Shown: positions 5,460-62,387, counted from the stretch's first letter. The stretch: 64,000 nt of DNA from Patescibacteria group bacterium (GCA_041671125.1 JBAZCA010000003.1:689-64688); one strand, 5' to 3'. The notes: a model not told the origin generated them from the sequence alone. Program-made: numbers and translations.

Positions 5460-5539
5460 AGCCATACTTTCTTCCCCGCGCCCGGCGGGAGTTTCCAGCA
5501 GGGACTCCCGCTCAAAGAAAAACAATTCTACAAATCCCC

Positions 5540-10529: not shown

Positions 10530-10555
10530 AATGCAAAATGACAAAATTATTTTAT

Positions 10556-10635
10556 CGTCATCCTGAGCGTAGCGAAGGATCCCGTGAACAGAGCTATTGC
10601 CACGAGATTCTTCGGCCTTCGGCCTCAGAATGACG
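10556..10635. repeat. GC-rich double-hairpin repeat (CGTCATCCTGAGC...CTCAGAATGACG family), copy 1
   Basis: Outer arms cgtcatcctgag / ctcagaatgacg and inner arms gaaggatcccgtg / cacgagattcttc. Flanked by inverted AAAATGN heptamers. A second copy lies at 37624-37726. Confidence 0.75.
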
Positions 10636-10661
10636 AATTCAATTTTTACATTTTACATTAT

Positions 10662-14855: not shown

Positions 14856-17800
14856 TTATTGCGCTCCTTCTTTCTTCTCGTCTTTATCGGCAATATAGTT
14901 TTCTCCGAAATCCACCTTTTGCATGTCTTCGTTTAAAAGCTCAACATCCAGACCAAGGCCTTTTAATTCCCTGACTAAAACATTGAAAGATTCCGGCACG
15001 TTTAGTTTCCTGATTTTTTCGCCCTTAATAATGGATTCATAAGCCTTGCTTCTTCCCGGAACGTCATCCGATTTAATAGTGAGCATTTCCTGCAGGGTGT
15101 GGGAAGCGCCATAGCCTTCCAGTGCCCAAACTTCCATTTCCCCAAACCGCTGTCCGCCGAATTGGGCTTTACCTCCCAAAGGCTGCTGGGTAATAAGCGA
15201 GTAAGGGCCGATTGACCGCTGGTGGACTTTATCTTCAACCATATGGTTAAGCTTTAGCATATACTTATAGCCAACGGTTATTTGGTGGTCATACGGGACG
15301 CCGGTCTTACCGTCATAAAGCGTCACCTTACCGTGTTCGGGCAGTCCGGCCCGCTTTAGTTCATCGGTAATGGTTTTCTCGCTGATTCCGTTTAGAGCCG
15401 GAGTGGCGACCGAGTAGCCGAGCTTTTTCGCGGCAAACCCAAGATGAGTTTCTAAAAGCTGCCCGAGATTCATCCGGGAAATAATGCCTAAAGGCGAAAG
15501 GATAATATCCGCCGGAGTGCCATCCTCAAGATACGGCATATCTTCCACCGGGACAATTTTGGAAATTACGCCTTTATTGCCGTGGCGGCCGGCCATTTTG
15601 TCGCCGATCTGAATTTTCCTTAAATTAGCTACTGAAATCTGGATAGTTTTTATCACGCCCGAAGAAAGCTTGTCGCCTTCTTCGCGGGAAAATATTTTTA
15701 TATCAACAACTTTCCCGTGTTCGCCATGTTCAAGATATAAAGACGAATCGCGGACGTCTTTGGCTTTCTCACCAAAAATCGCCCGGAGCAGTTTTTCCTC
15801 GGCTGAAAGTTCAGTCTCGCCCTTTGGGGTAATCTTGCCGACTAAAATATCGCCGGAAGAAACTTTAGCCCCGATCCGGACAATGCCTTCTTCGTCCAGA
15901 TTCTTTAGTTTTTCTTCCGAAATATTAGGAATATCGGAAGTAACCGCTTCAGGACCGAGTTTTGTGTCGCGAACGTCAATGGAATAGTCTTCAATATATA
16001 TGGAAGTATAAGTATCGTTAGCGACCATGCGTTCGGAAATAATAATCGCGTCTTCGTAGTTAAAACCCTCCCAGGTCATGAAGGCGACTAAGACGTTTTT
16101 TCCCAAAGCCAGCTCGCCTTTGTCAATCGCCGATGAATCGGTCAATACCTGCCCTTTTTTCACTTTCTCGCCTTTGGATACGATTGGTCGCTGATTGATG
16201 CAGGTGGAAGCGTTGGACCTTAAAAATTTCGTAAGCTGGTAGGATGCGGTTTTTCCGCCTTTCTCGCGAATGGCGATTGATCCGGAATCGGATTTTATCA
16301 CTTCGCCATCTTCTTCGGCGATTAAAATATGGCCAGAATAGCGGGCGGCCAGAGCTTCAACCCCGGTGCCGATAATCGGCGCCTCGGCGTTAATAAGCGG
16401 CACGGCCTGGCGTTGCATGTTGGTACCCATGAGCGCCCGTTGGCCGTCGTCATGTTCCATAAAAGGTATGAGCGAGGTGGCGACTGAAATTATTTGGTTA
16501 GCCGCTACCCCAAGATAATCTACTTTATCAGTATCCTCGGTGGCCGGCTGGCCGAATTTTCTCACTTCGGCCCTTTCAACCGTAAAATGATTATTATTAT
16601 CGGTCGGGGTAGTCGCCGACGTCGTAATGCTTCTTTCTTCTTCCAGGGCGTCAAGATAAACGATTTCATCGGTTACTACCGGCTTGATCGGGATAGTCTT
16701 GTTGTGTGGCACTTTTTCCCGAATTTCCCTAGCCTTTTCCTTACTAATCACTTCGCCCGCTTTAACCAACAGTTTGCCTTTAATTTCTTTCTGATCCTCT
16801 GTTTGGGATTCCCGCCCGCCTGACGCGTTCGGGCGGGTGGAATTTTGAATTTGTAATTTTATCTCGTGTATATCTTTCCGGGCGATTTTTCCTTCGGTAA
16901 TTTTCGGATCATTTTCCACGTCATGCAAAACCTTGCGGTAAGGCGCTTCCAAAAATCCATAATTATTCAGCCGGGCAAAACTCGCCAAATGGTTGACCAG
17001 ACCGATATTCGGGCCTTCAGGCGTCGCGATCGGACAAATGCGGCCGTAGTGAGTGGAGTGCACGTCCCGGACGTCAAAACCGGCCCGTTCACGGGTTAAG
17101 CCCCCGGGACCCATGGCTGAAAGCCTTCTTTTATGCTCCAGCTCGGACAACGGGTTGGTCTGATCCATGAACTGGGAAAGCTGGGAAGACATGAAAAATT
17201 CCCGCACCACGCCGATTACCGGACGGGCGTTAATAAGTTTGTTTGGCGTCAGGGCGTCCATGTCTATGGTGCTCATCCGGTCGCGAATAATCCGCTCCAT
17301 TCTCGCTAGTCCGACGCGAAATTTATTTTGCAAAAGTTCGCCGATGGCCCGAACGCGGCGGTTCCCGAGGTGGTCAATATCATCTTCTTTTTTCTGAGTG
17401 ATATTCAGGCGGATGATTTCGGATAAAATGGCAATCAAATCCTCTTTTCTTAAAATCCTGGTTTCTTTATTTACCGGAATGTCAAATTTAAAACGCTTAT
17501 TCAGCTTATAGCGGCCGACCCGGCCGAAATCATAACGGTCAAAACGGAAAAACATGGAGTAGATAAGCTGGCGGGCGTTGTCAGTCGTAGCGAGATCGCC
17601 CGGCCGGATCCTTTTATAGACTTCTTTTAAGCCGTCGGCTTCGTTCTGCGCTGCGTCCTTACCTATAGTCGCGGCAATGTAATTTTCCGCTTCGTCAAAT
17701 TCTTTATATAGACTTTTAAACAAAGCGTGAATTTCTTCGTCGGCGCCGAATCCGAAAGCCCGAAGAATAGAAGTGGCGGCCACTTTTCTTTTCCGGTCAA

Positions 17801-20649: not shown

Positions 20650-21679
20650 AAAAAAATTTTCTTAAGACTCTAAAAACACTATATACCTTATACCACTTAT
20701 TTTCAAAGACCATATCAAACGTCCCCGGATAACTTATTTCTCTGCCGCCGAATCCCCGTTTAAAGCGTGTTACGCCCGGCCATTTTTTTTCGTCAATGCC
20801 GTAAAAATCATAATACCGGTAACCCTGGCACTTTGCCAGCTTAATCGTTTCCCACTGCAGAAGAAAAGGCGCCATTACGTTCCGGGATTCGCTTGAAGAG
20901 GCGCCGTGGATATAAGTAACCGTGTCCCCAAAAAATCCAACAATATTGGCCGCTATAACTCTACTGTTATATACGGCAAAATATAATTTAATCTTCAAGT
21001 TCTCCTTGCTGTTTTTTTCCCGGCTACAGTCTAATGACAGCATTTTGTCATAATATTTCTCCCCATGCAAACGAAAACCATCCCTCTTGCAGGTATCATC
21101 CAATAAGCACCAAAAACTATCAAATTCACCTGCCTCGGCCTCCCTGATAATTACCCCTTTTTTTTCCGCCAGCCGGATATTATATCTCGTTTTCGGATGC
21201 ATTTCTTTTAACAACTCTTCCTCGCTTACTGACAGGTTAAGGATTGCGGTTTTTGACGGCTGAACATCCAGCGTCCGCGCAAATTCCAAATTCTCCGCCA
21301 AAGGCGGATCCGCCTCGGGCAGGCAAATTCCAAATTCCAAATTATTTTCCGGTTCAAAACGCAGGAATATCGCATTTTGCTGTTTCGCCAAATCTTTAAT
21401 TGCGTCAAAAAATAATTTGTAATTTGGAATTTGTAATTTGTAATTAACGATCGGTCCTCTCGGACAATAAAAATAACTCTTGCCGAAAAAAAGCGGCTTT
21501 TTTATGAGTGTAGCCGCGGCAACCAGTTTTCCGCCGTCCTCCGCCCCCAGCCTGAATACTTTCTGTCCGGCCTTTTCCTGAAATTCTCCCCATTCCCAGG
21601 ATTGGTGAAAAACGCTGTTATCGGAATTACCAATAAATTCATTCAATATTTCTTTATGTTTAATAAAAACAATATTCAT
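20648..21679 (-). CDS. FemAB-family peptidoglycan interpeptide-bridge aminoacyltransferase (FemX-like)
   Basis: FHQSWEWGEFQEK, RYNIRLAEKKGV and YIHGASSSESRNVMAPFLLQWETIKLAKCQGYRYYDFYGI are typical of FemAB. Confidence 0.8.
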   Translation of the reverse strand: MNIVFIKHKEILNEFIGNSDNSVFHQSWEWGEFQEKAGQKVFRLGAEDGGKLVAAATLIKKPLFFGKSYFYCPRGPIVNYKLQIPNYKLFFDAIKDLAKQQNAIFLRFEPENNLEFGICLPEADPPLAENLEFARTLDVQPSKTAILNLSVSEEELLKEMHPKTRYNIRLAEKKGVIIREAEAGEFDSFWCLLDDTCKRDGFRLHGEKYYDKMLSLDCSREKNSKENLKIKLYFAVYNSRVIAANIVGFFGDTVTYIHGASSSESRNVMAPFLLQWETIKLAKCQGYRYYDFYGIDEKKWPGVTRFKRGFGGREISYPGTFDMVFENKWYKVYSVFRVLRKFF

Positions 21680-22292: not shown

Positions 22293-23612
22293 TCATAACC
22301 CATAGACCACAACACCTCTATTATCCGGGGCATGCTTTATAAGTCTTCTTAAGACGCTAAACTCAGGAATTAAAAAATTGCTTTCTATTAAAATCACCCG
22401 GTCGCTCCCGCCGTGCGCCTCAGCCAGATATTCGCCGGTCTCGGCGTCAGTCATATTATTCAGCTTCATTTTTATTATATCATAAACCGGGCTCACAATC
22501 TCAATTTCTTCGCCGACCCTTAACGTATTATGCACTTTAATACCTAACAAATATTTCTTATTTCTTACTTCTAACTTCTTGATTTTTACCACCTGCCCGC
22601 AAAATTCCCAATCGCAATTTTCTTTGGAAGTCGCGAGATTTTGCGCCAGCTTTCCCTCGTTAAAAAGAAACCCGGTCGTATAACCGCGGTTAAAAATTTT
22701 CTCTTCCAGATCGCTTTGCAACCGGCTGACCAGTTTAGCGTTACTCAAATTTTCCATGGCTTTTTTGTAAGCGCCAACCACGGTCGCGATATAATACACG
22801 CTCTTGGTCCGGCCTTCAATTTTAAAAGAAGTAACCCCGGCTTCAGCTAATTCCCGCAGATGTTTTATCAAGCACAAATCTTTTGAATTCAAAATATAAG
22901 AATAACCATCTTCCTCATAAAGTTCAAAGATGCCATTAACACCATCAGGGATGATCAACTTCTCACTTTTTACTTCTAACTTCTTACTTTTAACTTGATA
23001 CGGCCACCGGCAGGGCTGGACGCAGTCGCCGAGATTGGCGCTCCGGCCGGTTAAATATTTTGATAAAAAACAGCGACCCGAATAGGCCATGCACATGGCG
23101 CCATGGACAAAATATTCCAGTTCCAGTTTTGGCGCGGCTTTTTTTATGGCTTTAATATCTTTGAGGCTGGTTTCTCGCCCGAGAACAATCCGGCTGACAC
23201 CCTCTTTAAACCAGAACTTCGCGGCCGATGAATTTATACAATTCGCCTGGGTGGAAAGATGGATTATCGCTTTTGGCCAGATTTTTTTTACCGCGCTCAG
23301 TATGCCCGGATCGGAAATCACCAGGGCGTCCACTTTCATTTTTTTCATCTCCCGGATAATGCCGGGCAGTTTCTTAAAATGATCCTCGTGGGCGAAAATA
23401 TTAAACGTCGCGTAAACCCGCTTTTCCATCTTATGAGCGTAATCCACGGCTTTCTTAACAGACTTTAAATCAAAATCGTTAATCCGCGCCCGGAGCGAAT
23501 AATCCGGGATGCCGAGATAAACCGCGTCCGCCCCGAAAGCGAAAGCGGTCTTCATTTTTTCCAGGTTGCCGGCGGGAGCCAGGAGTTCAATTCTATTATT
23601 ATTCCTCATCAT
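22293..23612 (-). CDS. peptidase U32 family protein
   Basis: ELLAPAGNLEKMKTAFAFGADAVYLG and the ...EGR.KS..Y.. region. Contains two in-frame ACTTCTN heptamer arrays (22553-22587, 22958-22999). Confidence 0.85.
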   Translation of the reverse strand: MMRNNNRIELLAPAGNLEKMKTAFAFGADAVYLGIPDYSLRARINDFDLKSVKKAVDYAHKMEKRVYATFNIFAHEDHFKKLPGIIREMKKMKVDALVISDPGILSAVKKIWPKAIIHLSTQANCINSSAAKFWFKEGVSRIVLGRETSLKDIKAIKKAAPKLELEYFVHGAMCMAYSGRCFLSKYLTGRSANLGDCVQPCRWPYQVKSKKLEVKSEKLIIPDGVNGIFELYEEDGYSYILNSKDLCLIKHLRELAEAGVTSFKIEGRTKSVYYIATVVGAYKKAMENLSNAKLVSRLQSDLEEKIFNRGYTTGFLFNEGKLAQNLATSKENCDWEFCGQVVKIKKLEVRNKKYLLGIKVHNTLRVGEEIEIVSPVYDIIKMKLNNMTDAETGEYLAEAHGGSDRVILIESNFLIPEFSVLRRLIKHAPDNRGVVVYGL

Positions 23613-28143: not shown

Positions 28144-29379
28144 CTATTTTATCCTTATATTTAACATTACCTTTTTTCCCCTCGCCTTAGTCGCGTAATA
28201 ACCGGTTAACAGTCCGGCAATCTCCAAAATATCTTCTTCACTCTTTATTTTCTCCATTTCAAGCCTCATTAAATCAAATTTTTCCGGAATTTTCATTTCT
28301 AATAAATCATTCTTAATTTGTAATTTGTAATTTGTAATTCGCATAAGCGTCGTCGGCCCCATCGTCCTTTCCAATCTTACCACGATATCCCCTTTTTTCG
28401 CCAGTCTTTCCAGTTTTTCGCTCTCAGCCTTATCCCGGCCGACTACAACTAAAACCCAATGGAAATTTATGTCGGCTTCCACTTTTACGTCTTTCAAATT
28501 CGCGCCGGTGAGCGATTTTAATGAATTCTTTAAAAATAAAGTAACTTTTGGCGTTTTTTGGCGTTTTCTCGCGGCTTCCGGCATGGCTAATTTCAGCCAA
28601 AACACCCGCCCGTGTTTTAACAATTCTACGTCTTCGGTTTTGCAATCCGGGCAATGAGTAATAATATCTAAAACTTTTTTTGACCCTTCCGGGTCGGTTA
28701 AAAGACAGCCGCCGGCGGGCGTTGGATAATCTTTAATGCCAAATTTTCCAGCCAATTTCATCTGCTCTTCTCTAGATCGGCCTTCAATATTCAGAAGCTT
28801 TTCCCGCTTTACCAGGCCTTTCTTTTCCATAGCCGTTTCCGGCAGGAGCCTCGCTGACAATGGCCGCAAAACCTCCACCCCCGCCATCCTTACCACTCTT
28901 AATAATGCTTCTTTATTTTGAGAAAACGGCCGCTGGCCAAGCACCTCGCCGGTAGCGATAAAGTCAAAAATGTCACATCCCCTCCCCGCGACGTCAGGAG
29001 TCGGGGAGGGGTTGGGGGTGGGGTGTTGCGGGAAAGACGAAGAAAGAATTTTCCGAGGAGCGGCTCCAGGTTTTAAATACTTACCAGCTTCGCGGATCAT
29101 GAGACTGTGGCAGTCTATGCAGGGATTCATGTTTTTTCCGTAACCGCAGGACGGGCATTTCACGATTGATAAAATCTTTTCCGCAAGATCCTCTTCAATC
29201 AAATTAATCTTAAGTTCCTTCGCGCTCTCCCGCGCCCGCTCGCAATTAAAAAAATTACTGGAAAAACAGATTCCAATAACTTCTATCCCCTGATTCATTA
29301 GCACTTTGGCGGCGAGCATTGAATCCAGTCCGCCGGAAAAAAGGACAAGAGCTCTCGCTTCATTTTTGCTTTTTCCCAT
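28144..29379 (-). CDS. PP-loop ATP pyrophosphatase family protein, tRNA-thiolation-like (ThiI/MnmA-related)
   Basis: SGGLDS PP-loop, NPCIDCH and ATGEVLGQRPFSQ motifs. Carries an in-frame GC palindrome (28979-29027) and a TAATTTG heptamer array (28314-28341). Confidence 0.55.
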   Translation of the reverse strand: MGKSKNEARALVLFSGGLDSMLAAKVLMNQGIEVIGICFSSNFFNCERARESAKELKINLIEEDLAEKILSIVKCPSCGYGKNMNPCIDCHSLMIREAGKYLKPGAAPRKILSSSFPQHPTPNPSPTPDVAGRGCDIFDFIATGEVLGQRPFSQNKEALLRVVRMAGVEVLRPLSARLLPETAMEKKGLVKREKLLNIEGRSREEQMKLAGKFGIKDYPTPAGGCLLTDPEGSKKVLDIITHCPDCKTEDVELLKHGRVFWLKLAMPEAARKRQKTPKVTLFLKNSLKSLTGANLKDVKVEADINFHWVLVVVGRDKAESEKLERLAKKGDIVVRLERTMGPTTLMRITNYKLQIKNDLLEMKIPEKFDLMRLEMEKIKSEEDILEIAGLLTGYYATKARGKKVMLNIRIK

Positions 29380-31027: not shown

Positions 31028-34000
31028 CTATTTTTTTACTATCCCTAGCCAAAGCTCTTGTCCTTCCACTTTCACATTTTTTTCCGCGAGAATTGCTTCG
31101 CTCCCGCCTTCGGCCAAAGCGTCGGCCAAAGTGTCCTTTATTATTGAGTCCCTGTAATTACTTATGGCTTTTTTTATTTCTTCATCAGCAGTCGCGTAAT
31201 AAATTTCAATCCGGTCTTTAATTGTCAGTCCGGCATCTTTTCGCATGCCATTCACCAGGCGGACAATTTCGCGTTTTACGCCTTCCTGCTTTAATTCAGG
31301 GGTGATTTTCGTGTCCAGCTCCACTTCCATATTACCTTTTCCGGAGCTCACAATCACATTTTTAACATTCACCTCGTCTTTTATTAATTCAACAAACTCA
31401 TTATCAATTCGTAATTCATAATTCTTAATTTTTAATTCATTCAATGGTTGTCTGACTTTTATTCCCGCCTCATCCCTTTTCGCCAGCGCCAATTCCACGA
31501 TTTGTCTGACCGTTTCCATATCTTTTAAAATTCTGTTGTCTGTTATCTGCTGTCTGTTGTCTAATTTTGGCCACGCTTCCAAATGCACCGATTTATTCTC
31601 ATCCTTAAAATCATTCCCGGTTATTCTCTGCCAGATATTTTCCGCCGAGAACGGCATATAGGGCGCCATGACTTTTACGAGCTGTGAAAGAACATGGGCG
31701 GTAGTCTTTATAGCCGCTTCTTTGTCTTTCTCGTCATCAGATTTAAACCGATCCCTTGACCTTCTTAAATACCAGGTTGATAAATCGTCAATAAATTCGG
31801 TAATCGGCCGGGCGCCGGAAGGCAAATCGTATCTTTCCAAAGCCGCGGTTACCTCTTTGGTAAGCTGGTTAAGCCGCGTCAGTATCCATTCATCCAAAAT
31901 ATTTTTTTTCCTTTCTTTAGAAACTCCCTCTCCCTGATCCGCCAGTTGGCGGAGAATAGGGGGAGGGACGGGGAGGGGGCTTGCGCCATCACCCGCAAAC
32001 ATTTCGTAAAACTTATAAACATTCCAAAGCAGGATTACGTTTTTCCGGAGCGAAGTTTGCAAATCCGTTTCCGAAAGGCTCATGTCGTCGCCGAGCATGA
32101 TAGGAGAAGACATAAAATACATTCGTAGAGCGTCGGAGCCGTATTTTTCCAGGGTCGCTTTCGGATCCGGGTAATTGCCGTAGGACTTGCTCATCTTCCG
32201 GCCGTCAGTCCCGGCGAGTACTCCGGTAGTAATAACATTTTTAAAAGCCCGGTCGCCAAACAAAGCGTTGCCAAGGACATGGAGATAATAGAACCAGCCG
32301 CGGAGCTGCCCGGTATATTCAATGATAAAATCGGCCGGGAAAAGATTTTTCCACTCATTTTTTCTTTCAAAAGGGTAGTGAAACTGCCCGAACGGCATAG
32401 CGCCGGACTCAAACCAACAATCCAAAACCTCCGGCACCCGGCGCATCAACCCGCCGCATTTATCGCAAGGAAATTCTGTTTCATCAATTCCGGGCTTATG
32501 CAAATCAGTTATTTTTTTCCCGCTTAACTTTTCCAGCTCTTCAATTGACCCGACCACTTTTATTTCCTTGCACTTATTCTCTTCCGCATTTTTGGAATTT
32601 GGAATTTGGAATTTGGAATTTCCCGTGCATTTCCAGACCGGTATGGGCGAGCCCCAGTAGCGCGAACGGGAAAGGCACCAATCCGGAGCCGATTCAAGGT
32701 TGTAGCGAAACCGGCCTTCTTTAAAATGTTCCGGCACCCAATTTATTTTTTCGTTAGTCTTAATCATCTTTTCCCGAATATCGGAAATCTTTAAGTACCA
32801 GGCTTTCTGCGCCTTATAGATCAAAGGCGTGCCGCAACGGTAGCAAAAAGGATAGCTATGGGTGTAGTCAAAAGAGGAAAATAGCCTTTCGCCCAAATCT
32901 TCAAAGACTTTTTTTCCGGCTTTGGAAAAATACTGCCCGGCCCAATCACCGGCGTTTTTCGTGTAAATCCCGTTTTCGTCCATCAAATCCACCATCGGTA
33001 AACCGGATTTTTTTCCCAGCTCAAAATCGTCCTCGCCGAAATTCGGGGCGATATGGACGATTCCGGTCCCTTCTTCGGTATTAACAAACCCGCCCGCGTA
33101 AATTTTAAACGCGTTCCTGTTTTCTTTTATTATTTCATTGCCTAAATCAAACAAAGGCTCGTATTCCAGTCCGAGTAAATCCTTGCCTTTTAATTCGGAG
33201 AGTAGCTTATATTCTTTTTCTTTAAAAATTTCTTCTGTTTTTTCCTTGGCTAAAACATATATTTCTTTACCGATCGCAACAACCTGGTAAACCACATCTT
33301 CTCCCACCGCCAGCGCTAAATTTCCCGGCAAAGTCCAAGGCGTCGTCGTCCAGGCCAGCATATAAACATCGCTGTTGACTTTTTCTTTCGGTAAATTCTT
33401 AATTCTTAATTCGTAATTCTTAATTCTAAATTTCACCACCACCGACTTTTCCCGGACATCTTTGTACGACCCGGCGTCCATGGTAATTTCAAACTTGGAC
33501 AAAGGCGTGGCGCAGCGCGGGCAATGGAGTGACGAACGGTAGCCTTCATAAATAAGGCTATCGTCATACAACTTTTTAAAAGCCCAGATAACGCTTTCCA
33601 TAAAAGAAAGATCCATGGTTTTGTAAGCGTTTCGCATGTCCACCCATCTTCCGATCCGGTTAATATACCATTCCCATTGTTCCGAGCCGACATTAACATA
33701 ATTGCGGCAGGCGGCGATGAATTTATCCACTCCGAGTTTTTCAATATCTTTTTTATTTCGGAGGCCTAGTTCCTGCTCAACTTTATTTTCGGCCGGTAAA
33801 CCGTGGCAGTCCCAGCCCCAAACCCGCTCCACCCGGTAACCTTTCATGGTCCAGTATCGCGGAACGACGTCTTTGGCAATGCTCGGCAATAACGTGGCGT
33901 AATGTGGCAGGCCGGTGATAAACGGCGGGCCATCGTAAAAAACATAATCAGGCGGATTTTTTCCCTCCTCACTAAGGAGGGGACTAAGGGGAGGTTTTGC

Positions 34001-37623: not shown

Positions 37624-37726
37624 CCCCGTCATCCTGAGCGGAGTGAAACGGAGCGAAGGATCTCGTGTTTAGCGGAAATGCCACGAGATTCTTCGTCCCG
37701 AGTGCTCGGGACTCAGAATGACGGGG
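37624..37726. repeat. GC-rich double-hairpin repeat (CGTCATCCTGAGC family), copy 2
   Basis: ccccgtcatcctgagc...gaaggatctcgtg...cacgagattcttc..gtcccgag tg ctcgggac tcagaatgacgggg. Same orientation as copy 1 at 10556-10635. Confidence 0.75.
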
Positions 37727-37768
37727 TAAAAAAGCATTTCGTAATTCAAAGTAATATCAATAACAATC

Positions 37769-41470: not shown

Positions 41471-44137
41471 TTAATTTCCACTTTTAAGCTTTTCCAGCTC
41501 AATTTTCCAATTTTCCAGTTTTTCTTTTTCCTTTTTAATTATTTCCTCCGGCGCTTTTTCCATAAATTCTTTATTTTCTAAACGCCCGGTAAGCCCGCTG
41601 ATCATTTTTTCCAAACGCTCCACTTCTTTTTTTATCCGCTCTTTTTCCTTTACTTCATCAATCGCACCGACAAGGTAAATTTCAACGCCGCCGACTGCCG
41701 CGTGGATCGCTTTTTCAATTTTCTCTCCGGTTTCCAGAATTTCCAGTTCGTTGATACCGGTCCGAAGTCCTTTTATTAATCCGGCCTGCGATTCAATCAA
41801 TTTAATATCCTTTCCGGCATAAATTATGGCTTTGACTTTTTTCGCCGGTTCAACTTTATTTTCCGCCCGCGCGTTCCTTATGGACTTAATCACTTCAATT
41901 ACTATATCAAATCCGCTCTCCTCATATTCCGCCGCTTTTTCCTCCGGCCACTCGGTTATCAAAAGCGGCTTATCAGCGCCTAGTCCGCTCCAGACGGCCT
42001 CAGTAATAAAAGGGATAAAAGGATGCCAGAGTTTTAGTAATCCCTCAAGGACATATTTAAGAACTTTGTTCTTTTCGGATGTTTTTTCAAATTTGCTTAA
42101 TTCAAGATACCAGTCAGCAAATTCGCTCCGGGTGAAATCTCTTAGCTTTTCGCCGGCCTGGGAAAACCTAAAGTTGCTAAAATCATTATTAACCTGTTTT
42201 ATCAAAGCCTGAAATTTCGCCAAAATCCATTTATCCGCCAAAGTCAGATTAGCATTATTAAATTCCGAATTCCCAACGCCATTCTCCTGGTTAGAAAAAA
42301 CGAATAAGGAAATATTCCAGAGTTTAGTGATAAAATTCCTCGCGCCGATAATTTTTTCCTCGTAAAATTTTGAATCATTTCCCGGCGATACTCCTAAAAG
42401 GAGGCTCAGGCGGAGCGAATCAGTGCCATAGTCCCTTATTACGTCCAGCGGGTCAATATTATTGCCGGATGATTTTGAAAACTTCCGGCCCTTTTCGTCG
42501 CGCAACATGCCGTGGATATATACGTCGCGGAAAGGAATTTCATCTAGCGTGTAAGTCGTCATTAAAATCATCCGCGCCATCCAAAAAAATAAAATTTCAT
42601 AACCCATCTGCATCCAGGCAGTCGGATGGAATGTCTTTAAATCATCATTATCGGCGGGTTTACCCGCCGTAGCTTCAGCGGAGGCGGGCCACCCAAGGGT
42701 TGAAAAAGTCCATAACGCCGAAGAATACCAGGTGTCCAAAGTATCTTCGTCTTGGATCCACCCCTCGCCTTCCGGAGGTTCAATCCCAACATAAATATCT
42801 TCCAAATTTTTGGAATTTGGAATTTGAGATTTGGAATTTGCATACCATACGGGTATGCGGTGTCCCCACCAAATTTGCCGCGAAATGCACCAGTCGCGCA
42901 AATTATCAATCCAGTTTAAATAAGTCTTATGGAACCTCTCCGGAATGATGGTTATTTTTTGAGCCGGATCGTTATTTAAGCCGGCCTCAACCGCTTCCCG
43001 CATCAGGTCTTTTAAACTTTTTCCTTTTCCCGGGATGATTTTATTGACGCTTACGAACCACTGCTCTTTTATCTGAGGTTCAACCAAACCATCACTCCGA
43101 TCCCCTTTGGCGACCCGATGAATATAATCTTCTTCCACCTTAACCAAAAGATTTTTTTCTTTTAATCTTTCTATTATCTTCGGTCTGGCTTTTAGAATAT
43201 CCATTCCTGCAAACTCACCCGCGATCGGCATCAATTCGCCGTTAAAATCAATAATTTGTTCTCCCTCTAAATTGTGTCTTTCCGCGATTTCAAAATCAAC
43301 CATGTCATGCCATGGCGTAATAGTCATGACTCCGGTTCCAAATTCCGGTTCAATGATACTATCCTTAATTATCGTTGCCGTAACCTTTCCATTAATCCAT
43401 TCACATTCAAACTTATCACCGTGTTTGTATTGCGCGTACCGTTCATCATCCGGATGCATAACTACATATTTGTCGCCAAATTTGGTTTCCGGGCGGGCGG
43501 TCGCGATTACGAATGGGCCGTATTGAAGATAATAAAAGGGCGCTTTTTCCTCGTGCCAAACTATCTCGTCGTCGGAAATTGTAGTTTGGAGTTTTGCATC
43601 CCAATTAACAATCCTTTTTCCGCGATAGATAAGCCCGTCGTCGTACATTTTTTTAAAAACCGTATTAACCGCCAGGTTGCGCTCGTCGTCAAAAGTATAA
43701 GCCAGGCGCGACCAGTCGCAGGAAGTCCCCATCTTCCGAATCTGCGAAAGGATGGTGGCTTTTGATTCTTCGGCATATTTTTTTATCTCTTTTAAAAGCC
43801 CCTCACGCCCGAGTTCCTGCCTCGGATTTTTTACGCCCTTTTCCATTAAGAGTTTTTCCACTTTAGCCTGCGTGGCCACGGCCGCGTGATCGGTTCCGGG
43901 GACGAGAAGAACTTTTTTTCCGCACATCCGCTGATAACGAGCCATGACGTCCATGAGGGAGTTTTCTAAAGCATGCCCAAGATGCAAAACTCCGGTAACG
44001 TTCGGCGGCGGCATCATGATTGAATAGGGATCGCCTTTCAGATTATCAGGATTAAAAAAACCCGACTGTTCCCATTTTTCATAAATTCCGTCTTCGTGCT
44101 CGGCTGGGTTATAGGTTTTGGGCAATTCTTTTTTCAT
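41471..44137 (-). CDS. valS: valine--tRNA ligase
   Basis: PPPNVTGVLHLGHA, KFSKSSGN and a C-terminal coiled coil; 888 aa. In-frame TGGAATT array at 42811-42838. Confidence 0.97.
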   Translation of the reverse strand: MKKELPKTYNPAEHEDGIYEKWEQSGFFNPDNLKGDPYSIMMPPPNVTGVLHLGHALENSLMDVMARYQRMCGKKVLLVPGTDHAAVATQAKVEKLLMEKGVKNPRQELGREGLLKEIKKYAEESKATILSQIRKMGTSCDWSRLAYTFDDERNLAVNTVFKKMYDDGLIYRGKRIVNWDAKLQTTISDDEIVWHEEKAPFYYLQYGPFVIATARPETKFGDKYVVMHPDDERYAQYKHGDKFECEWINGKVTATIIKDSIIEPEFGTGVMTITPWHDMVDFEIAERHNLEGEQIIDFNGELMPIAGEFAGMDILKARPKIIERLKEKNLLVKVEEDYIHRVAKGDRSDGLVEPQIKEQWFVSVNKIIPGKGKSLKDLMREAVEAGLNNDPAQKITIIPERFHKTYLNWIDNLRDWCISRQIWWGHRIPVWYANSKSQIPNSKNLEDIYVGIEPPEGEGWIQDEDTLDTWYSSALWTFSTLGWPASAEATAGKPADNDDLKTFHPTAWMQMGYEILFFWMARMILMTTYTLDEIPFRDVYIHGMLRDEKGRKFSKSSGNNIDPLDVIRDYGTDSLRLSLLLGVSPGNDSKFYEEKIIGARNFITKLWNISLFVFSNQENGVGNSEFNNANLTLADKWILAKFQALIKQVNNDFSNFRFSQAGEKLRDFTRSEFADWYLELSKFEKTSEKNKVLKYVLEGLLKLWHPFIPFITEAVWSGLGADKPLLITEWPEEKAAEYEESGFDIVIEVIKSIRNARAENKVEPAKKVKAIIYAGKDIKLIESQAGLIKGLRTGINELEILETGEKIEKAIHAAVGGVEIYLVGAIDEVKEKERIKKEVERLEKMISGLTGRLENKEFMEKAPEEIIKKEKEKLENWKIELEKLKSGN

Positions 44138-50955: not shown

Positions 50956-52365
50956 TCACGCTTTTCCTAAAAACCTCTTCTTTCTTAAAAGCCGGTGATA
51001 GCCGATGGCAAAACGGTGGGCTTCGTCTCTGACCCGCTTAATTAAATGCAAGGCGGGCGAGGCGAGCGGCAGTTCCAAAGGAGTTTTTTCCCCGGCGAAA
51101 AAAAGCTTGTCCGGCGCTAAGGCTGATCTTAAACCTTCACCTTTTGAAATAGCGATTACCGGAATATCCAGTTTATATTTTTTCAGCGCGCGCAAAGCCA
51201 CGTTCAATTGCGCCTTGCCGCCGTCAATAATTACGAGGTCCGGCAAAGGCCAATTATCTTTCTCTCGCCCCCTCCCCTCTGATTCGCCAGCTGGCGGAGA
51301 TAGGGGGAGGTCAGGGAGGGGGTTTTTGCGAGAGAGAAAATGTTTAAATCTCCTCGCTAGCACCTCTTCAAGCATTTTTATATCCCCGCCGCGAGCCTTT
51401 AAGCCGGTAAAAATTATCTTATCCGCCTTAATCTTAAATTTCCGATACTGGCTTCTATCGGGCTCGCCGCCGGAAAATACCACCATTGATCCGACCGCCT
51501 CTCTGCCGAAAATATTAGATATATCATAGCCTTCAATCCGTTCAGGCACAACCGGCAATGACATTATTTTCGCGAGTTCCAGAACGTCGTTTTGGTATTT
51601 TTCCCCGATACTTATAACCCGGGACATTTCAATAACTTTTTCTATATTTAACAAACGATAATTAAGGAGGTCAATATTTTTTTCCAACAATTCTCTTTCT
51701 TCTCCGTTAGCCGGTAAATTTTTAATTCGTAATTCATAATTCTTAATTCTTTTCTTTATATCGTTAACCACGTCCTTTTTCCTTCCTTCTAAAAATCTTA
51801 TGACCTGTTTTACGTACTCAAGATACTCTTTATGGCTGATTTTTTTTTCGCACATTCCGGCGCACTTACCAACGTAATAATACAGGCAGGCGCGTTTTGG
51901 TAAATTATAGCAAGTTCGGTAGGGCCAGATCCGACGGATGATTTTTAAAGTTTCACGCACCGCCAGTCCTGAAATAAACGGACCGAAATATTTTCCGGAT
52001 TTATCAATCGTCCGGGTGGAGTAAATCCGCGGCCACTCCTCTTCAACGGAAACCTTTATATAAGAAAAGCGTTTGTCGTCGCGGAACAGGATATTGTATT
52101 TAGGCTGATATTTTTTTATCAGGTTAGCTTCCAGTAAAAACGCCTCTACTTCGCTTTCCACTGTTATCCATTTTACGCGCGCGATTTCCCCGACCATGCG
52201 CTCTTTGGCCGGCGTAAGACCAGAACCTTTTTGCCAATATGAAAGAACGCGGGATTTCAGGTTTACCGCTTTTCCCGCGTAAATAATTTCCCCGGCGCCG
52301 TCAAAAAATTCATAACAGCCGGGAGATTCGGGAATGTTCAATTTTTTTATTTGTTCCAGCTTCAT
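50956..52365 (-). CDS. uvrC: excinuclease ABC subunit C, short form (469 aa)
   Basis: GIY-YIG (PGCYEFFDGAGEIIYAGKAVNLKSRV) and an RNase H-like endonuclease region (IEGYDISN, DGGKAQL, DEAHRFAI). It ends before any (HhH)2 domain. Carries an in-frame heptamer array and a GC palindrome. Confidence 0.85.
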   Translation of the reverse strand: MKLEQIKKLNIPESPGCYEFFDGAGEIIYAGKAVNLKSRVLSYWQKGSGLTPAKERMVGEIARVKWITVESEVEAFLLEANLIKKYQPKYNILFRDDKRFSYIKVSVEEEWPRIYSTRTIDKSGKYFGPFISGLAVRETLKIIRRIWPYRTCYNLPKRACLYYYVGKCAGMCEKKISHKEYLEYVKQVIRFLEGRKKDVVNDIKKRIKNYELRIKNLPANGEERELLEKNIDLLNYRLLNIEKVIEMSRVISIGEKYQNDVLELAKIMSLPVVPERIEGYDISNIFGREAVGSMVVFSGGEPDRSQYRKFKIKADKIIFTGLKARGGDIKMLEEVLARRFKHFLSRKNPLPDLPLSPPAGESEGRGREKDNWPLPDLVIIDGGKAQLNVALRALKKYKLDIPVIAISKGEGLRSALAPDKLFFAGEKTPLELPLASPALHLIKRVRDEAHRFAIGYHRLLRKKRFLGKA

Positions 52366-52411
52366 GGGGTTAACGTAAAATGAATTATGCTTACTGCTGA
52401 TTTTGAAGTTC

Positions 52412-52507
52412 CATTATTCATAATTCGTAATTCATAATTCAATTTTTTCATTTTACATTGTCATTTTTATTTTCCCGCCCGACTGAACGCCAGTCGTTCG
52501 GGCGGGT
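52412..52507. repeat. heptamer array plus CCCGCCCG...TTCGGGCGGG hairpin, intergenic copy
   Basis: cattatt cataatt cgtaatt cataatt caatttt ... then cccgcccgactgaacgccagtcgttcgggcggg followed by tgattttt. Related to the in-frame rpoB copy at 16811-16858. Confidence 0.7.
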
Positions 52508-54133: not shown

Positions 54134-54323
54134 GAGATGCGAGCATTGAAAAATTTCGGCGATAATCGCGAGCGTAGAAAGTGTGCAAAATTCCACTGCT
54201 TGAGGAGTCCCGCCATCAGGCGGGGCGACGAGTTTGGAATTTTGCTAGCTTTCCTAGCGAGTGATCCGAAATTTTTCCTGCTCGCGATTTTTGCGCCACT
54301 TTTTCTAAAAAAGTGGCAAAAAG
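54133..54323 (+). ncRNA. about 190-nt highly structured repeat element (unclassified), copy 1, filling the proS-proC spacer
   Basis: Nested long-range helices (gcgagcattgaaaaatttcgg/ccgaaatttttcctgctcgc; gcaaaattcca/tggaattttgc; cccgcc/ggcggg) plus a 3' hairpin gccactttttctaaaaaagtggc. The second copy at 61544-61730 shows compensatory changes. The strand and RNA nature are inferred. Confidence 0.5.
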
Positions 54324-56499: not shown

Positions 56500-57624
56500 C
56501 TATTCAAATACAAGATAATCATAATGCACGGCGATTTTTTTTCCGCCCTCAATCCTTTCACCTTCAATGTGCGATTCCTTGTGCTTCTTTATTTCCAATA
56601 CCAGCTCATCGCGGGCAAAACGGGATTGGCCTTTGGCTAAAACCGTCCCGTCAATATCACAAACCGCGATAACATCGCCTTTTTTAAACTCGCCCTCCAC
56701 GCCCTCTACGCCAGAAAGAAGCACCGAAGCCGGCTGCTTCTTTTTTAATATGTCAGCGAGATAACAGCTGGTAATTATCCTGCCTTTGGGATGGGCGGCG
56801 AGGGCGAGCCAGCCTTTCAACGGTTTTATTTTCTTTTTTATGGCCTTAAAATGAGTGCCAATTTTTTCGTTATGGAGAATTATTTTTGACAATATTTCCG
56901 GTTCAAAACCGCTTGCGATGTCCATCTCAATTCCGAGCGAAATAATTTGAGCGGCGGTAATTAATTTACTTTTCATTCCGCCCCGGCCGACTTCGCTCTT
57001 TCCCGCGCCCATGCTTTTTATCATCTTCTCAATATCTTCTAGCTCAGTTAAAAGTTTGGCGCCTTTTTCTTTCGGGTCTTTGTCGTAGACCCCAGCCACG
57101 TTGGTTAAAATTAATAATCTGTCCGCCACCAGCATGGCCGCGATCATCGCCGAAAGCTGGTCATTATCGGAAAAATCAAGCTCTTCCGGCGACAAAACGT
57201 CGTTCTCGTTAAAAATCGGGATAATGCCGAGACTTACTAAGTTTTCCGTTACTGTCCGCAAGCTTAAATATCTCTGCCGGTCGGAAAAATCCGCCCGGGT
57301 TACTAAAACTTGCGCGCAGTTAAGGCCGTGCCTTTTAAACTCAGACTTATAAACCGCCATCAATTCCGGCTGTCCGACCGCGGCAAGCATCTGCTCGCGA
57401 ATTATTTTTTTCGGCTGGCCGTCTGCTTTGACCCGGAACTCACCGACGAGTTCTTTCGCCGCCCGACCGCTCGCGACCGCTCCGGATGAGACTATGATAA
57501 TCTTTTTTCCAGCTTTAATGACCCGGGCGGCGTCGCTTATTAGGCTGGCAATTACCGGAAGGTTTAAATCGCCGCCGCTATTAGCAATAAGCTGGGAGCC
57601 AATTTTTACCACAACTTTTTCCAT
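56500..57624 (-). CDS. proB: glutamate 5-kinase with a C-terminal PUA domain
   Basis: VVVKIGSQLI, IIVSSGAVASG, and a PUA-like C-terminus. Start moved to the ATG at 57624; the longer ORF reads through the tRNA trailer repeat. Confidence 0.9.
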   Translation of the reverse strand: MEKVVVKIGSQLIANSGGDLNLPVIASLISDAARVIKAGKKIIIVSSGAVASGRAAKELVGEFRVKADGQPKKIIREQMLAAVGQPELMAVYKSEFKRHGLNCAQVLVTRADFSDRQRYLSLRTVTENLVSLGIIPIFNENDVLSPEELDFSDNDQLSAMIAAMLVADRLLILTNVAGVYDKDPKEKGAKLLTELEDIEKMIKSMGAGKSEVGRGGMKSKLITAAQIISLGIEMDIASGFEPEILSKIILHNEKIGTHFKAIKKKIKPLKGWLALAAHPKGRIITSCYLADILKKKQPASVLLSGVEGVEGEFKKGDVIAVCDIDGTVLAKGQSRFARDELVLEIKKHKESHIEGERIEGGKKIAVHYDYLVFE

Positions 57625-57628
57625 ACAG

Positions 57629-57715
57629 TTTTTGTGGACGCTAGTGGACTCGCCCGGCATCCAGCATACGCCAGACAAGTCCGCCGGGCGTCCAGCGAAT
57701 GCTGGACGAACCTTA
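57629..57715 (-). repeat. conserved tRNA-Val trailer, copy A (ends with a 24-nt duplicate of the tRNA-Val-GAC 3' end)
   Basis: Minus-strand TAAGGTTCGTCCAGCATTCGCTGGACGCCCGGCGGACTTGTCTGGCGTATGCTGGATGCCGGGCGAGTCCACTAGCGTCCACAAAAA. Nearly identical to 61453-61540. 57629-57652 repeats 57726-57749. Confidence 0.8.
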
Positions 57716-57731
57716 ACTTAAGTCATTTTTG

Positions 57732-57805
57732 TGGACGCTAGTGGACTCGAACCACTGACCTTTACGATGTCAACGTAACGCTCTAACCAACTGAGCTAAG
57801 CGTCC
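57732..57805 (-). tRNA. tRNA-Val (anticodon GAC)
   Basis: Folds by hand into a 74-nt cloverleaf: GGACGCT/AGCGTCC acceptor, GCTC/GAGC D stem, TTACG-TTGACAT-CGTAA anticodon arm, AGTGG-TTCGAGT-CCACT T arm. No encoded CCA. Confidence 0.9.
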
Positions 57806-57822: not shown

Positions 57823-57896
57823 TGCGCCCAGATGGACTTGAACCATCGACCCCGGCTTTATAAGAGCCGTGCTCTAACCAGCTGAGCTATGGGCGC
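57823..57896 (-). tRNA. tRNA-Ile (anticodon UAU)
   Basis: 74-nt cloverleaf: GCGCCCA/TGGGCGC acceptor, CGGCT-CTTATAA-AGCCG anticodon arm (TAT at positions 34-36), GATGG-TTCAAGT-CCATC T arm. Confidence 0.85.
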
Positions 57897-61374: not shown

Positions 61375-61448
61375 GGACAATTAGCTCAGTTGGTTAGAGC
61401 GCACGCTTCACACGCGTGAGGTCGGAGGTTCGAGCCCTCCATTGTCCA
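61375..61448 (+). tRNA. tRNA-Val (anticodon CAC)
   Basis: 74-nt cloverleaf: GGACAAT/ATTGTCC acceptor, CACGC-TTCACAC-GCGTG anticodon arm, GGAGG-TTCGAGC-CCTCC T arm. Confidence 0.9.
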
Positions 61449-61452
61449 CGAA

Positions 61453-61540
61453 TAAGGTTCGTCCAGCATTCGCTCCCCGCCCGGCGGACTTGTCTGGCGT
61501 ATGCTGGATGCCGGGCGAGTCCACTAGTGACCACAAAAAA
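61453..61540 (+). repeat. conserved tRNA-Val trailer, copy B
   Basis: Differs from copy A only at GGAC->CCCC and CGT->TGA. Inverted relative to copy A. Confidence 0.8.
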
Positions 61541-61543
61541 ACC

Positions 61544-61730
61544 AGAGATGCGAGCATTGAAAAATTTCGGAAAAATCATGAGCGTGGAAGCCGTGTAAAA
61601 TTCCACTGTCTGAGGACCCGCCGAATCGGCGGGGACGAGTTTGGAATTTTACTAGGCTTCACAGCGAATGATCCAAAATTTTTCCTGCTCGCAATTTTTG
61701 CGCAACTTTTTCTAAAAAAGTTGCAAAAAT
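61544..61730 (+). ncRNA. about 190-nt highly structured repeat element, copy 2
   Basis: Collinear with 54133-54323. Helix changes are compensatory (gtaaaattcca/tggaattttac, gcaac/gttgc, gaagcc/ggcttc). Followed by a terminator. Confidence 0.5.
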
Positions 61731-61752
61731 CCATCGCGCAAACTGCCTCTAT

Positions 61753-61786
61753 AAAAAAACGCTTTAAACAAAAAGCGTTTTTTTTA
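61753..61786. terminator. bidirectional intrinsic terminator (end of the tRNA-Val/trailer/element unit and of clpP)
   Basis: aaaaaaacgcttt aaacaa aaagcgtttttttt; the stem is flanked by an A-run and a T-run. Confidence 0.65.
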
Positions 61787-61808
61787 ATTCACTTAAACCC
61801 GCGACTCT

Positions 61809-62387
61809 CTACTTCGTAATAATCTTATCAATAATCCCGTATTTCTTCGCTTCTTCGGCGCTCATAAAATTATCACGGTCAGTATCTTTTTCTATGGTCG
61901 CGAGTTTTTGCCCGGTGTGGCCGGCTAAAATATTATTCAGCCGGTCTTTTAATTTTAAAATCCGCTCAGCGCCGATTTTTATATCGGTCGCCTGCCCCTC
62001 AATCCCGCCCATGATCTGATGGATCATTATTTCCGAATTCGGGAGAGCGAATCTTTTGCCTTTAGCTCCGGCGGCGAGTAAAAACGCGCCCATGCTGGCC
62101 GCGAGGCCGACGCAGATTGTTGAGACGTCCGGCTTTATATACTGCATGGTGTCATAAATAGCGAGGCCGGACGAAACCGAGCCGCCCGGGGAGTTTATAT
62201 AAAATTTAATTTCCTTGTCTTTATCCTGGGCGGCTAAAAATAAAAGTTGGGCGATAACGATATTGGCCGTATGGTCGCCGATCGGTTCGCCTAAAAATAT
62301 GATCCGATCCTTTAAGAGCCGGGAATAAATATCGTAAGCCCGTTCGCCGTGGCTGGATTTTTCAATGACTGTTGGTATTAATGGCAT
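61809..62387 (-). CDS. clpP: ATP-dependent Clp protease proteolytic subunit
   Basis: [33 protein letters not shown] (catalytic Ser) and MIHQ (His). Start moved to the ATG at 62387 (MPLIPTVIE). Confidence 0.95.

Follow-up and report, generated by a model that had tools for sequence, protein, structure and literature searches.

Two tRNA-Val genes of different sequence in a 64-kb stretch of a Patescibacteria (candidate phyla radiation, CPR) genome are each followed by a near-identical 87-nt sequence, termed here trailer A (behind tRNA-Val-GAC and ahead of proB, the glutamate 5-kinase gene) and trailer B (behind tRNA-Val-CAC). The whole 64-kb stretch is called the window, and coordinates refer to its full length. 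Both trailers are insertions private to this lineage, and the insert that they carry lies in the T loop of a truncated tRNA copy, at the same break point as unrelated inserts found in related genomes. With somewhat more confidence than doubt, they are read as a gene-less relic, i.e. a hairpin-interrupted pseudo-tRNA-Val remnant left by tRNA-breaking selfish DNA, plus one secondary copy.

An 87-nt repeat behind two tRNA genes

Trailer A (57629-57715, minus strand) and trailer B (61453-61539, plus strand) are identical at 82 of 87 positions, and an earlier note on this DNA was right in describing near-identical trailers behind different tRNA-Val genes. They form an 87-nt inverted repeat with 94% complementary arms, 3737 nt apart. 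A 46-nt trailer core occurs exactly twice in the window, with no occurrence expected from 100 shuffles. The 24-mer CGAGTCCACTAGCGTCCACAAAAA is found exactly at 57629-57652 and at 57726-57749, where the last 18 nt of tRNA-Val-GAC (57732-57805, minus strand, the functional copy, detected by ARAGORN and Rfam) are followed by CAAAAA. The gap between both exact copies is 73 nt, and a version with 2 mismatches stands at 61516-61539 (0 expected). The exact duplicate of the tRNA-Val-GAC 3' end that the note had located 4 nt from the proB start is indeed present, CTGT being the 4 nt between 57629 and the ATG at 57624, and trailer A does fill the entire spacer between this tRNA and proB.

The differences between both copies amount to 5 nt. 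Three are consecutive, GGA in A and CCC in B, and the two others, C.T in A and T.A in B, lie within AGCGTCC (A) or AGTGACC (B). The difference blocks given earlier, GGAC/CCCC and CGT/TGA, cover the right positions, but each includes one identical base. The segments TGGACGC and GCGTCCA, described as complementary to each other in copy A, are there. The repeat units share the ends TAAGG...CCACAAAAA while their flanks are unrelated, and outside the 87 nt both loci share only a 35-nt similarity at the tRNA 5' side. The repeat, confined to 87 nt, is not part of a bigger segmental duplication, a possibility that had been raised beforehand. Further trailer copies, for which a search had been suggested, are present neither in the window nor in the public collections scanned with words from the trailer interior, namely the GTDB species genomes (18-mer, 596 Gb), the JGI metagenomes (18-mer) and IMG/VR (a 22-mer and two 16-mers), where a blastn check left only chance matches confined to the k-mer.

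Read along the tRNA strand, copy A runs from tRNA-Val-GAC through CAAAAATGACTTAAGT, TAAGGTT, CG TCCAGC ATTC GCTGGA CG CCCGGC (24 nt) GCCGGG, CGAGTCCACTAGCGTCCA CAAAAA and CTGT to the ATG of proB. The 16-nt spacer CAAAAATGACTTAAGT (57716-57731, minus strand) separates the working tRNA from the repeat unit and shares its first 6 nt with the proximal 24-mer. TAAGGTT (57709-57715, minus strand), the left end of the unit, is a putative 5' remnant of the T stem and T loop (GGTT, then CG), analogous to GATGGTT, CATGGTT and GAAGTTC in the related contigs L009, L004 and L007, respectively. It is followed by M2-A (57653-57708, minus strand), a 56-nt GC-rich T-loop insert delimited by sequence, hairpin scan and folds, for which no relative has a counterpart. 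The hairpin scan gives its hairpin 1, CGTCCAGC-ATTC-GCTGGACG (8 bp, 57689-57708, minus strand), after which CCCGGC...GCCGGG encloses 24 nt. The unit closes with a pseudo 3' end of tRNA-Val-GAC (57629-57652, minus strand), extending from T-loop C56 to the discriminator and its CAAAAA flank. M2 sits between GGTT(CG) and CGAGTCC, the two halves of the T loop (GGTTCGAGTCC), with the break point at GGTT/CGAG. Copy A hence combines an intact tRNA with GGTTCG, M2 and CGAGTCC, i.e. an intact target beside a truncated copy broken where cassettes are inserted in relatives.

Trailer B starts 4 nt behind tRNA-Val-CAC (61375-61448, plus strand, ARAGORN and Rfam), a tRNA with the same sequence in L004 and L027. 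Sequence alignment gives its left end, TAAGGTT (61453-61459, plus strand), then M2-B (61460-61515, plus strand), the same 56-nt insert in which CCC for GGA breaks hairpin 1, and a pseudo 3' end of Val-GAC type (CGAGTCCACTAGTGACCACAAAAA; 61516-61539, plus strand) foreign to tRNA-Val-CAC, whose own end is CGAGCCCTCCATTGTCCACGAA. As noted earlier, this module follows a tRNA whose own 3' end differs from it (CGAGTCCACTAGTGACCA vs CGAGCCCTCCATTGTCCA). The B pseudo end (CGAGTCCACTAGTGACCA plus CAAAAA) is of the Val-GAC/proB type, and since the Val-CAC acceptor strand reads GGACAAT, the two cannot pair. The tRNA-Val genes themselves form inverted repeats, with 35 nt in common at the 5' end and also the T loop, and B occupies a position equivalent to that of A. 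The internal arms TCCAGCATTCGC and GCGTATGCTGGA form an 11/12 inverted repeat. With GGA, the 8-bp hairpin of A at 57689-57708 is complete, and C.T makes the pseudo end of A match the tRNA end 97 nt upstream at all positions (24/24). The C-to-T change in B gives rise to the palindrome CACTAGTG.

Empty sites in sister contigs

Sister contigs were retrieved through homologues of proB and of the RNHCP gene, the closest of which all carry Patescibacteria or Parcubacteria labels. In L001, whose proB is 88% identical in nucleotides, an intact tRNA-Val-GAC ending ...CGAGTCCACTATTGTCCACAAAAACTGTATGG directly abuts proB; from the end ...GGTTCGAGTCCACTATTGTCCACAAAAACTGTATGG it meets proB via the junction CAAAAACTGT, the same as in the window, and the junction ...GTCCACAAAAACTGTATGG likewise matches. 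By blastn, this single tRNA 3' end aligns twice, to 57629-57652 contiguously with proB and to 57726-57749 contiguously with the tRNA, whereas the 73 nt in between (57653-57725) have no counterpart in L001. What looks like a duplicate near proB is therefore the original tRNA 3' end, still at its ancestral position, and the remaining sequence is an addition. The L027 contig carries a tRNA-Val-GAC identical to that of the window, without trailer.

At the second locus, L004, L027, L076 and L081 display a plain terminator hairpin directly behind tRNA-Val-CAC, and the stretch 61450-61810 of the window aligns to no relative. Empty sites thus stand at orthologous positions in L001, L027, L004, L076 and L081. 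The trailer interior has no similarity to any relative outside the tRNA-derived part, and the trailer is absent from all of them, its conservation being limited to the two near-identical copies. Another proB relative, L075 (61% identity), is non-syntenic and uninformative.

The note had also proposed that both trailers could mediate inversion of the segment that they bracket. Gene order and orientation from clpP to proB are the same in the window, L004, L027 and L076, so the bracketed segment is not inverted.

Broken tRNA genes in related genomes

Several relatives carry pseudo-tRNAs interrupted in a similar manner. In L007, L008 and L009, the spacer ahead of proB holds GTCCAGAAGTTC, a 21-nt hairpin CCTGCCCGCCGATGAGGCGGG and GAGCCCTCTCGCGTCCACAT, while an intact tRNA-Val-GAC of L076 ends in the uninterrupted GGCCAGAGGTTCGAGCCCTCTCGCGTCCACAT. 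What stands behind the different, working tRNA-Val-GAC of L007 is thus a former tRNA-Val T arm whose T loop contains a hairpin. The tRNA-Val-GAC alleles are of the acceptor types GGACGCT, GGACAAT, GGGCGGC and GGGTTTA. In L009, the native tRNA-Ile is split after GATGGTT, where an 82-aa open reading frame (ORF) of the GIY-YIG family starts, and an intact tRNA-Ile comes next; the 3' pseudo-copy of this tRNA-Ile is interrupted between GGTT and CAAGTCC by a 46-nt double hairpin, termed M1, and runs out into the native flank downstream. In L004 and L006, a 1.35-kb block is made of tRNA-Val-GAC, a GIY-YIG ORF and an MBL-fold gene. It is followed by CATGGTT, an M1-like 56-nt module and, before proB, the pseudo end CGAGCCCTCTTAAACCCA CAAAAA, with CGAGCCCTCTTAAACCCACAAAAA behind the module in L004. 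All of these cases have in common with the window the break point, a GC-rich module ending in GGG(G) and a retained 3' end, the insert sequences being unrelated.

The GIY-YIG ORF is present in L004, L006, L009, L077 and L078. Homologues of the L009 protein in unrelated contigs show the same layout at tRNA-Gly (L077) and tRNA-Asp (L078-L080), with an intact tRNA adjoining. At tRNA-Gly, the 5' fragment bears D-loop hairpins and the stop codon of the ORF is the TAG of tRNA positions 8-10, while at tRNA-Asp both pseudo-copies have TCTCGCC-loop-GGCGAGA in place of the stretch from anticodon to T stem.

These small free-standing ORFs (82-84 aa) lie at L009 349-838, L004 6448-7965, L006 400-800, L077 2388-2819 and L078 2265-2830, and also in L079 and L080. 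They stand beside an intact tRNA (Ile, Val, Gly or Asp) with flanking pseudo-copies whose hairpin is in the D loop, the anticodon arm or the T loop. In L009 and L077, the ORF extends 10 nt into the intact tRNA before stopping at the TAG of positions 8-10. At L001 327-387 and L004 6276-6330, a tRNA 5' fragment (of a window-type tRNA-Val in L001, of tRNA-Ile in L004) has a perfect 20-nt palindrome, CCTGCCTGCCGGCAGGCAGG, in its D loop, and these fragments bearing CCTGCCTGCCGGCAGGCAGG lie just upstream of the intact tRNA.

The full-text literature searched returned no description of a GIY-YIG ORF combined with an intact tRNA and hairpin-interrupted pseudo-tRNAs. The closest likeness lies in the tRNA gene cluster of phage T4, where the GIY-YIG homing endonuclease SegB is encoded by a free-standing cassette that travels with part of its target gene (PMC2330249). 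As with such cassettes, an intact tRNA of the relatives is accompanied by a GIY-YIG ORF and has incomplete copies on both sides, of which the 3' one is built like the trailer. Unlike them, the window lacks an endonuclease gene, and the cassettes, found in Patescibacteria and in other bacteria, are chromosomal and accompanied by pseudo-tRNAs bearing GC-rich hairpins, their homing being putative.

The mobile module M1

The M1 module, of about 45-55 nt, consists of a 7-bp hairpin with a GNGNGA loop, then a second hairpin of the form (A)TCCCG...CGGG. The L004 contig has 4 copies, at about 2670-2720, 4960-5010 and 15050-15100 on the minus strand and 7887-7942 on the plus strand. Others lie at L027 2275-2320 (minus), L076 6885-6940 (minus), L081 about 1290-1340 (minus) and L009 777-823 (plus). 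One L004 copy occupies the spacer between uvrB and the DHH gene, a spot that is empty in L027 and in the window, and M1 is found in the 5' leader of tRNA-Val-CAC in L004, L027, L076 and L081, that of the window being devoid of it. The module is mobile. Its stems covary, with compensatory changes at 4 of 7 pairs and with 83% of cells paired, shifted controls reaching 38% at most. No Rfam family corresponds to M1, and MAFFT misaligns its hairpin 2. A regex scan of the window gave no convincing copy, only a weak match with 5 of 7 pairs on the minus strand around 485, at a distance from the trailers. The M2 module resembles M1 in architecture only and lacks the GNGNGA loop. A homology between M2 and the L007 trailer was considered, but the part held in common in a MAFFT alignment, i.e. 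tRNA-derived pieces plus GTCCAG.A, is unconvincing.

Site-specific integration or transposition

The direct repeat of a tRNA 3' end had been likened to the scar of integrase-type integration at a tRNA. Part of this idea holds. The trailer was indeed inserted at the 3' end of a tRNA, relatives have empty sites, and the 24-mer genuinely duplicates the segment that extends from the T loop to the tRNA 3' end. The classical scar does not. A tyrosine-integrase scar of an island or prophage at the tRNA-Val 3' end, with the 24-mers as attL and attR cores and the island mostly deleted, is very improbable. The sequence from the T loop to past the tRNA end is a sublocation typical of integrase attachment (att) cores, and the repeat in A spans precisely this segment as an exact duplicate with an intact tRNA on one side, like attL/attR repeats. 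Unlike these, only 73 nt lie between the repeats, no integrase or other recombinase or transposase appears among 28 window ORFs (part of its ORFs) scanned with Pfam, and no viral contig matches. Only at copy A is the insertion enclosed by direct repeats of the 3' part of the tRNA. The B distal end misfits tRNA-Val-CAC and hence is not a displaced native end, and the distal fragment of L007 is mismatched to the acceptor stem of the tRNA in current use, so a simple T-loop crossover cannot produce it. In relatives, the T-loop break point holds GIY-YIG cassettes and small hairpin modules, not integrase islands.

A second view takes the 87-nt unit for a non-autonomous element, akin to miniature inverted-repeat transposable elements (MITEs), whose own 3' end mimics that of a tRNA-Val and which a recombinase encoded elsewhere in the genome places just behind tRNA-Val genes. 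Copies A and B would then be independent, and the 24-nt repeat of A would come from Campbell-type recombination through the homologous tRNA end. The discrete ends shared by both copies in unrelated flanks are consistent with this, as are their co-oriented placement 4-16 nt behind a tRNA-Val, the sites empty in all relatives, the 11/12 inverted repeat TCCAGCATTCGC/GCGTATGCTGGA and the other small lineage-specific inserts hosted by the genome, such as a 190-nt element. Such an origin is nevertheless unlikely, since M2 has 2 copies in 64 kb, the scans of GTDB, JGI and IMG/VR with words of 16-22 nt gave chance matches only, the 28 ORFs include no enzyme for it, and a 97-nt circle is implausible as a recombination substrate. 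Nor do the flanks look like target-site duplications, the 24-nt repeat around A exceeding the length that a staggered cut would leave, and B having none.

Small palindromic mobile elements are known from repetitive extragenic palindromic (REP) sequences and bacterial interspersed mosaic elements (BIMEs), Rickettsia palindromic elements, and mitochondrial GC clusters or double-hairpin elements. Like them, M2 is short, non-coding, GC-rich relative to the genome, hairpin-forming and polymorphic in presence or absence, and such elements can sit in RNA genes. Unlike them, M2 is known from two copies only, always in tRNA-derived flanks, with neither similarity to M1 nor a known transposase.

Interruption of a tRNA also recalls the group I introns of Patescibacteria tRNA genes, spliced ribozymes at position 35/36 of the anticodon loop (PMC13011429). 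The phylum and the interrupted gene type are the same, but the 56-nt size, the T-loop position in a truncated copy and the lack of any Rfam intron match set the trailer apart, and a group I intron was rejected. A split or permuted tRNA or a T-loop intron was also set aside, as the host copy has nothing of the tRNA upstream of the T loop and a complementary partner was not seen.

Predicted structure and transcription

Copy A is predicted to fold at -43 kcal/mol, far better than shuffles (z = -4.5 alone, -4.7 with the tRNA), whereas the fold of copy B, whose hairpin 1 is disrupted by the CCC patch, stays at chance level (z = -2.0 alone, -1.6 with the tRNA). Full-length folds of both copies favor a 15-bp helix that includes 4 G-U pairs and, for this reason, exists on the tRNA-sense strand only. 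The interleaved stems CCAGCAT/ATGCTGG and GCCCGGC/GCCGGGC, described earlier as pseudoknot-like, are both in the sequence, but a pseudoknot is unsupported. Indeed, they extend to stems of 12 and 8 bp joined by a 1-nt linker, which in standard H-type pseudoknot geometry cannot span a 12-bp stem, and the minimum-free-energy folds use the 15-bp helix instead. The trailers match nothing at E up to 10 with the tRNA covariance model, ARAGORN or Rfam; on the whole window, Rfam gives only three tRNAs above threshold. A permuted-tmRNA (transfer-messenger RNA) match (E = 0.76, 57540-57791) was dismissed as driven by the tRNA.

No promoter-like or terminator-like site appears between tRNA-Val-GAC and proB, and trailer B lies between tRNA-Val-CAC and its terminator. 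Both copies are thus inside tRNA transcription units and probably transcribed. At L001 388-475, proB begins 10 nt past the tRNA-Val-GAC discriminator, with no Shine-Dalgarno-like sequence. This layout implies a tRNA-proB co-transcript whose mRNA 5' end would be set by tRNA processing. Positions 57622-57652 of the window retain the L001-type proB junction behind the pseudo 3' end. When 57625-57805 (minus strand) is folded at minimum free energy, the partner of the 5' acceptor strand of the tRNA is the distal pseudo 3' end and not its own 3' end, and on this modelled pairing the distal duplicate could compete during tRNA maturation. From its position in these units and from this fold, the trailer may have an effect on processing.

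These features raise the question of a selected RNA. The trailer would be a structured RNA co-transcribed with tRNA-Val, acting either as a small RNA from the 3' external transcribed spacer (3'ETS) or as a pseudo end that recruits RNase P/Z and sets the proB mRNA 5' end. The fold of copy A, the strand-specific helix, the pairing of the acceptor strand with the pseudo end, the absence of punctuation before proB, the position of B ahead of its terminator and the co-transcript implied by L001 all fit this view. A function of this kind is nonetheless quite improbable. The trailer is absent from every relative, including L027 with its identical tRNA, it has no Rfam family, hairpin 1 and the acceptor-like pairing are broken in B, whose fold is unremarkable, and covariation is not assessable from two copies. 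Escherichia coli 3'ETS-leuZ is a tRNA 3' external transcribed spacer acting as a small RNA. Like it, the trailer is a structured sequence just downstream of a tRNA within its transcription unit, but it differs in its lack of conservation across relatives, and its processing and targets are hypothetical. The trailers are neither a classical integrase scar, nor an inversion switch, nor a conserved RNA, and they are probably inert, without selected function.

Proposed origin

According to the reading as a gene-less relic, the ancestral tRNA-Val-GAC 3' end would have been kept in place, 4 nt before the proB ATG, while the 56-nt double-hairpin module M2 would have been wedged into its former T loop (GGTT/CGAG). 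The intact tRNA-Val(GAC) that lies 16 nt further upstream of the truncated pseudo-tRNA would be a replacement, and the endonuclease gene would have been lost from copy A or never have been present there. By analogy with the relatives, a GIY-YIG or hairpin-element event is a likely source, the architecture being the same as that of the GIY-YIG cassettes and mobile double hairpins at tRNA-Ile, -Val, -Gly and -Asp.

Copy B would be a non-reciprocal copy of the whole 87-nt A-type unit, produced by ectopic conversion or template switching between the tRNA-Val arms. The direction from A to B is suggested by the pseudo end and CAAAAA of B, of Val-GAC/proB type, at a place where relatives have no tRNA remnant, which argues for copying from an A-type unit and not for independent decay. 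The five differences would be templated corrections (quasi-palindrome or direct-repeat), GGA perfecting the A hairpin and C.T matching the tRNA end. Clustered patches are typical of templated corrections, which are established mutational mechanisms.

Several points weigh against this origin. The left tRNA remnant is only GGTTCG (6 nt). The M2 module shares no sequence with M1 and is found nowhere else, so its mobility is putative. A tblastn search with the L004 and L009 proteins gave no GIY-YIG gene or fragment in the window, and the link to the cassettes rests on analogy. For B, the junction homology is only TCCAC.AA plus an A run, and the mechanism of placement 4 nt behind tRNA-Val-CAC is putative. 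Both copies are 94% identical in a lineage whose closest relatives show at least 12% coding divergence, an identity that selection on an RNA could explain no less than recency or gene conversion. The best predicted helix (15 bp, 4 G-U) is, moreover, strand-specific.

A broader version, more doubtful than the relic itself, sees the trailers as miniature gene-less derivatives of a class of tRNA-invading selfish DNA for which the literature searched gave no description, made of a small GIY-YIG ORF, a replacement tRNA and hairpin-capped pseudo-tRNA pieces, the pseudo end possibly serving as an RNase P/Z signal. This class may break tRNA genes at the D, anticodon or T loop, in Patescibacteria and in other bacteria.

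Gene neighborhood and other repeats

Gene order is shared with the sister contigs and comprises clpP, tRNA-Val-CAC on the opposite strand, the RNHCP gene, uvrB, a DHH-like gene, tRNA-Ile, tRNA-Val-GAC and proB, with proA/proC/proS on the other strand downstream of proB in the sister contigs. The proB gene (56500-57624, minus strand, ATG at 57624) is recognized by its Pfam AA_kinase and PUA domains. No exact protein record exists for the RNHCP and clpP proteins of the window, nor for P0121, an RNHCP homologue with 99% identity. The tRNA-Ile-TAT gene (57823-57896, minus strand, ARAGORN and Rfam) keeps its genomic TAT anticodon and its place beside tRNA-Val-GAC throughout the clade, in the window and in all relatives; bacteria uncommonly have such an anticodon.

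An element of about 190 nt that forms a long, imperfect hairpin has two copies, at 54134-54322 and 61549-61729, about 88% identical, with compensatory stem changes and a CCCGCC-loop-GGCGGG apex. The first separates proS from proC, which abut in L001 and L004, and the second follows trailer B, which does lead into this element as the earlier note had observed. Both are lineage-specific insertions in sense orientation inside transcription units. Two copies of another hairpin repeat, CGTCATCCTGAGCG..AGCGAAGGATC.CGTG...CCACGAGATTCTTCG...CTCAGAATGACG, lie at 10555-10640 and 37625-37735; the repeat with CGTCATCCTGAGCG presumably resembles a MITE-like repeat widespread in metagenomic bacteria.

Short AT-rich periodic repeat families (AATTCGTAATTC... 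and GGAATTTGGAATTT...) recur in intergenic spots at 21405-21446, 22548-22589, 28303-28341, 31387-31439, 32580-32621, 33389-33430, 42798-42839, 51712-51753 and 52403-52441. A 262-nt direct repeat, 71% identical, is found at 5744-6005 and 7533-7794 in neighboring ORFs. The ORF 7338-8528, with one copy, and the nearby ORF 4548-5459 have a weak Pfam match resembling pilins of the type IV secretion system (T4SS), and the ORF 5444-6724, with the other copy, has no Pfam match. The ORFs with this repeat are probably paralogous surface proteins.

Biological significance

Duplicated tRNA 3' segments or tRNA-like ends in reduced Patescibacteria genomes need not mean prophages or islands. The trailers are traces of very small selfish DNA by which tRNA genes have been repeatedly broken and replaced, and suggest an element family, combining a GIY-YIG ORF, an intact tRNA and hairpin-interrupted pieces, that is possibly new. 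Lying in tRNA units, with A ahead of proB, they could affect tRNA maturation or proB expression. If the pseudo end were processed, cleavage would fall after the pseudo discriminator at 57634/57635 and the proB mRNA would start from CAAAAACUGU; as an RNase P/Z signal, it would set the 5' end of this mRNA, a bacterial case of tRNA punctuation. If this is a homing system, it would show a way in which selfish DNA can enter an essential single-copy tRNA gene while the function of the gene is preserved. The whole is best read as the activity of tRNA-targeting selfish DNA in this clade, of which the trailers are a by-product.

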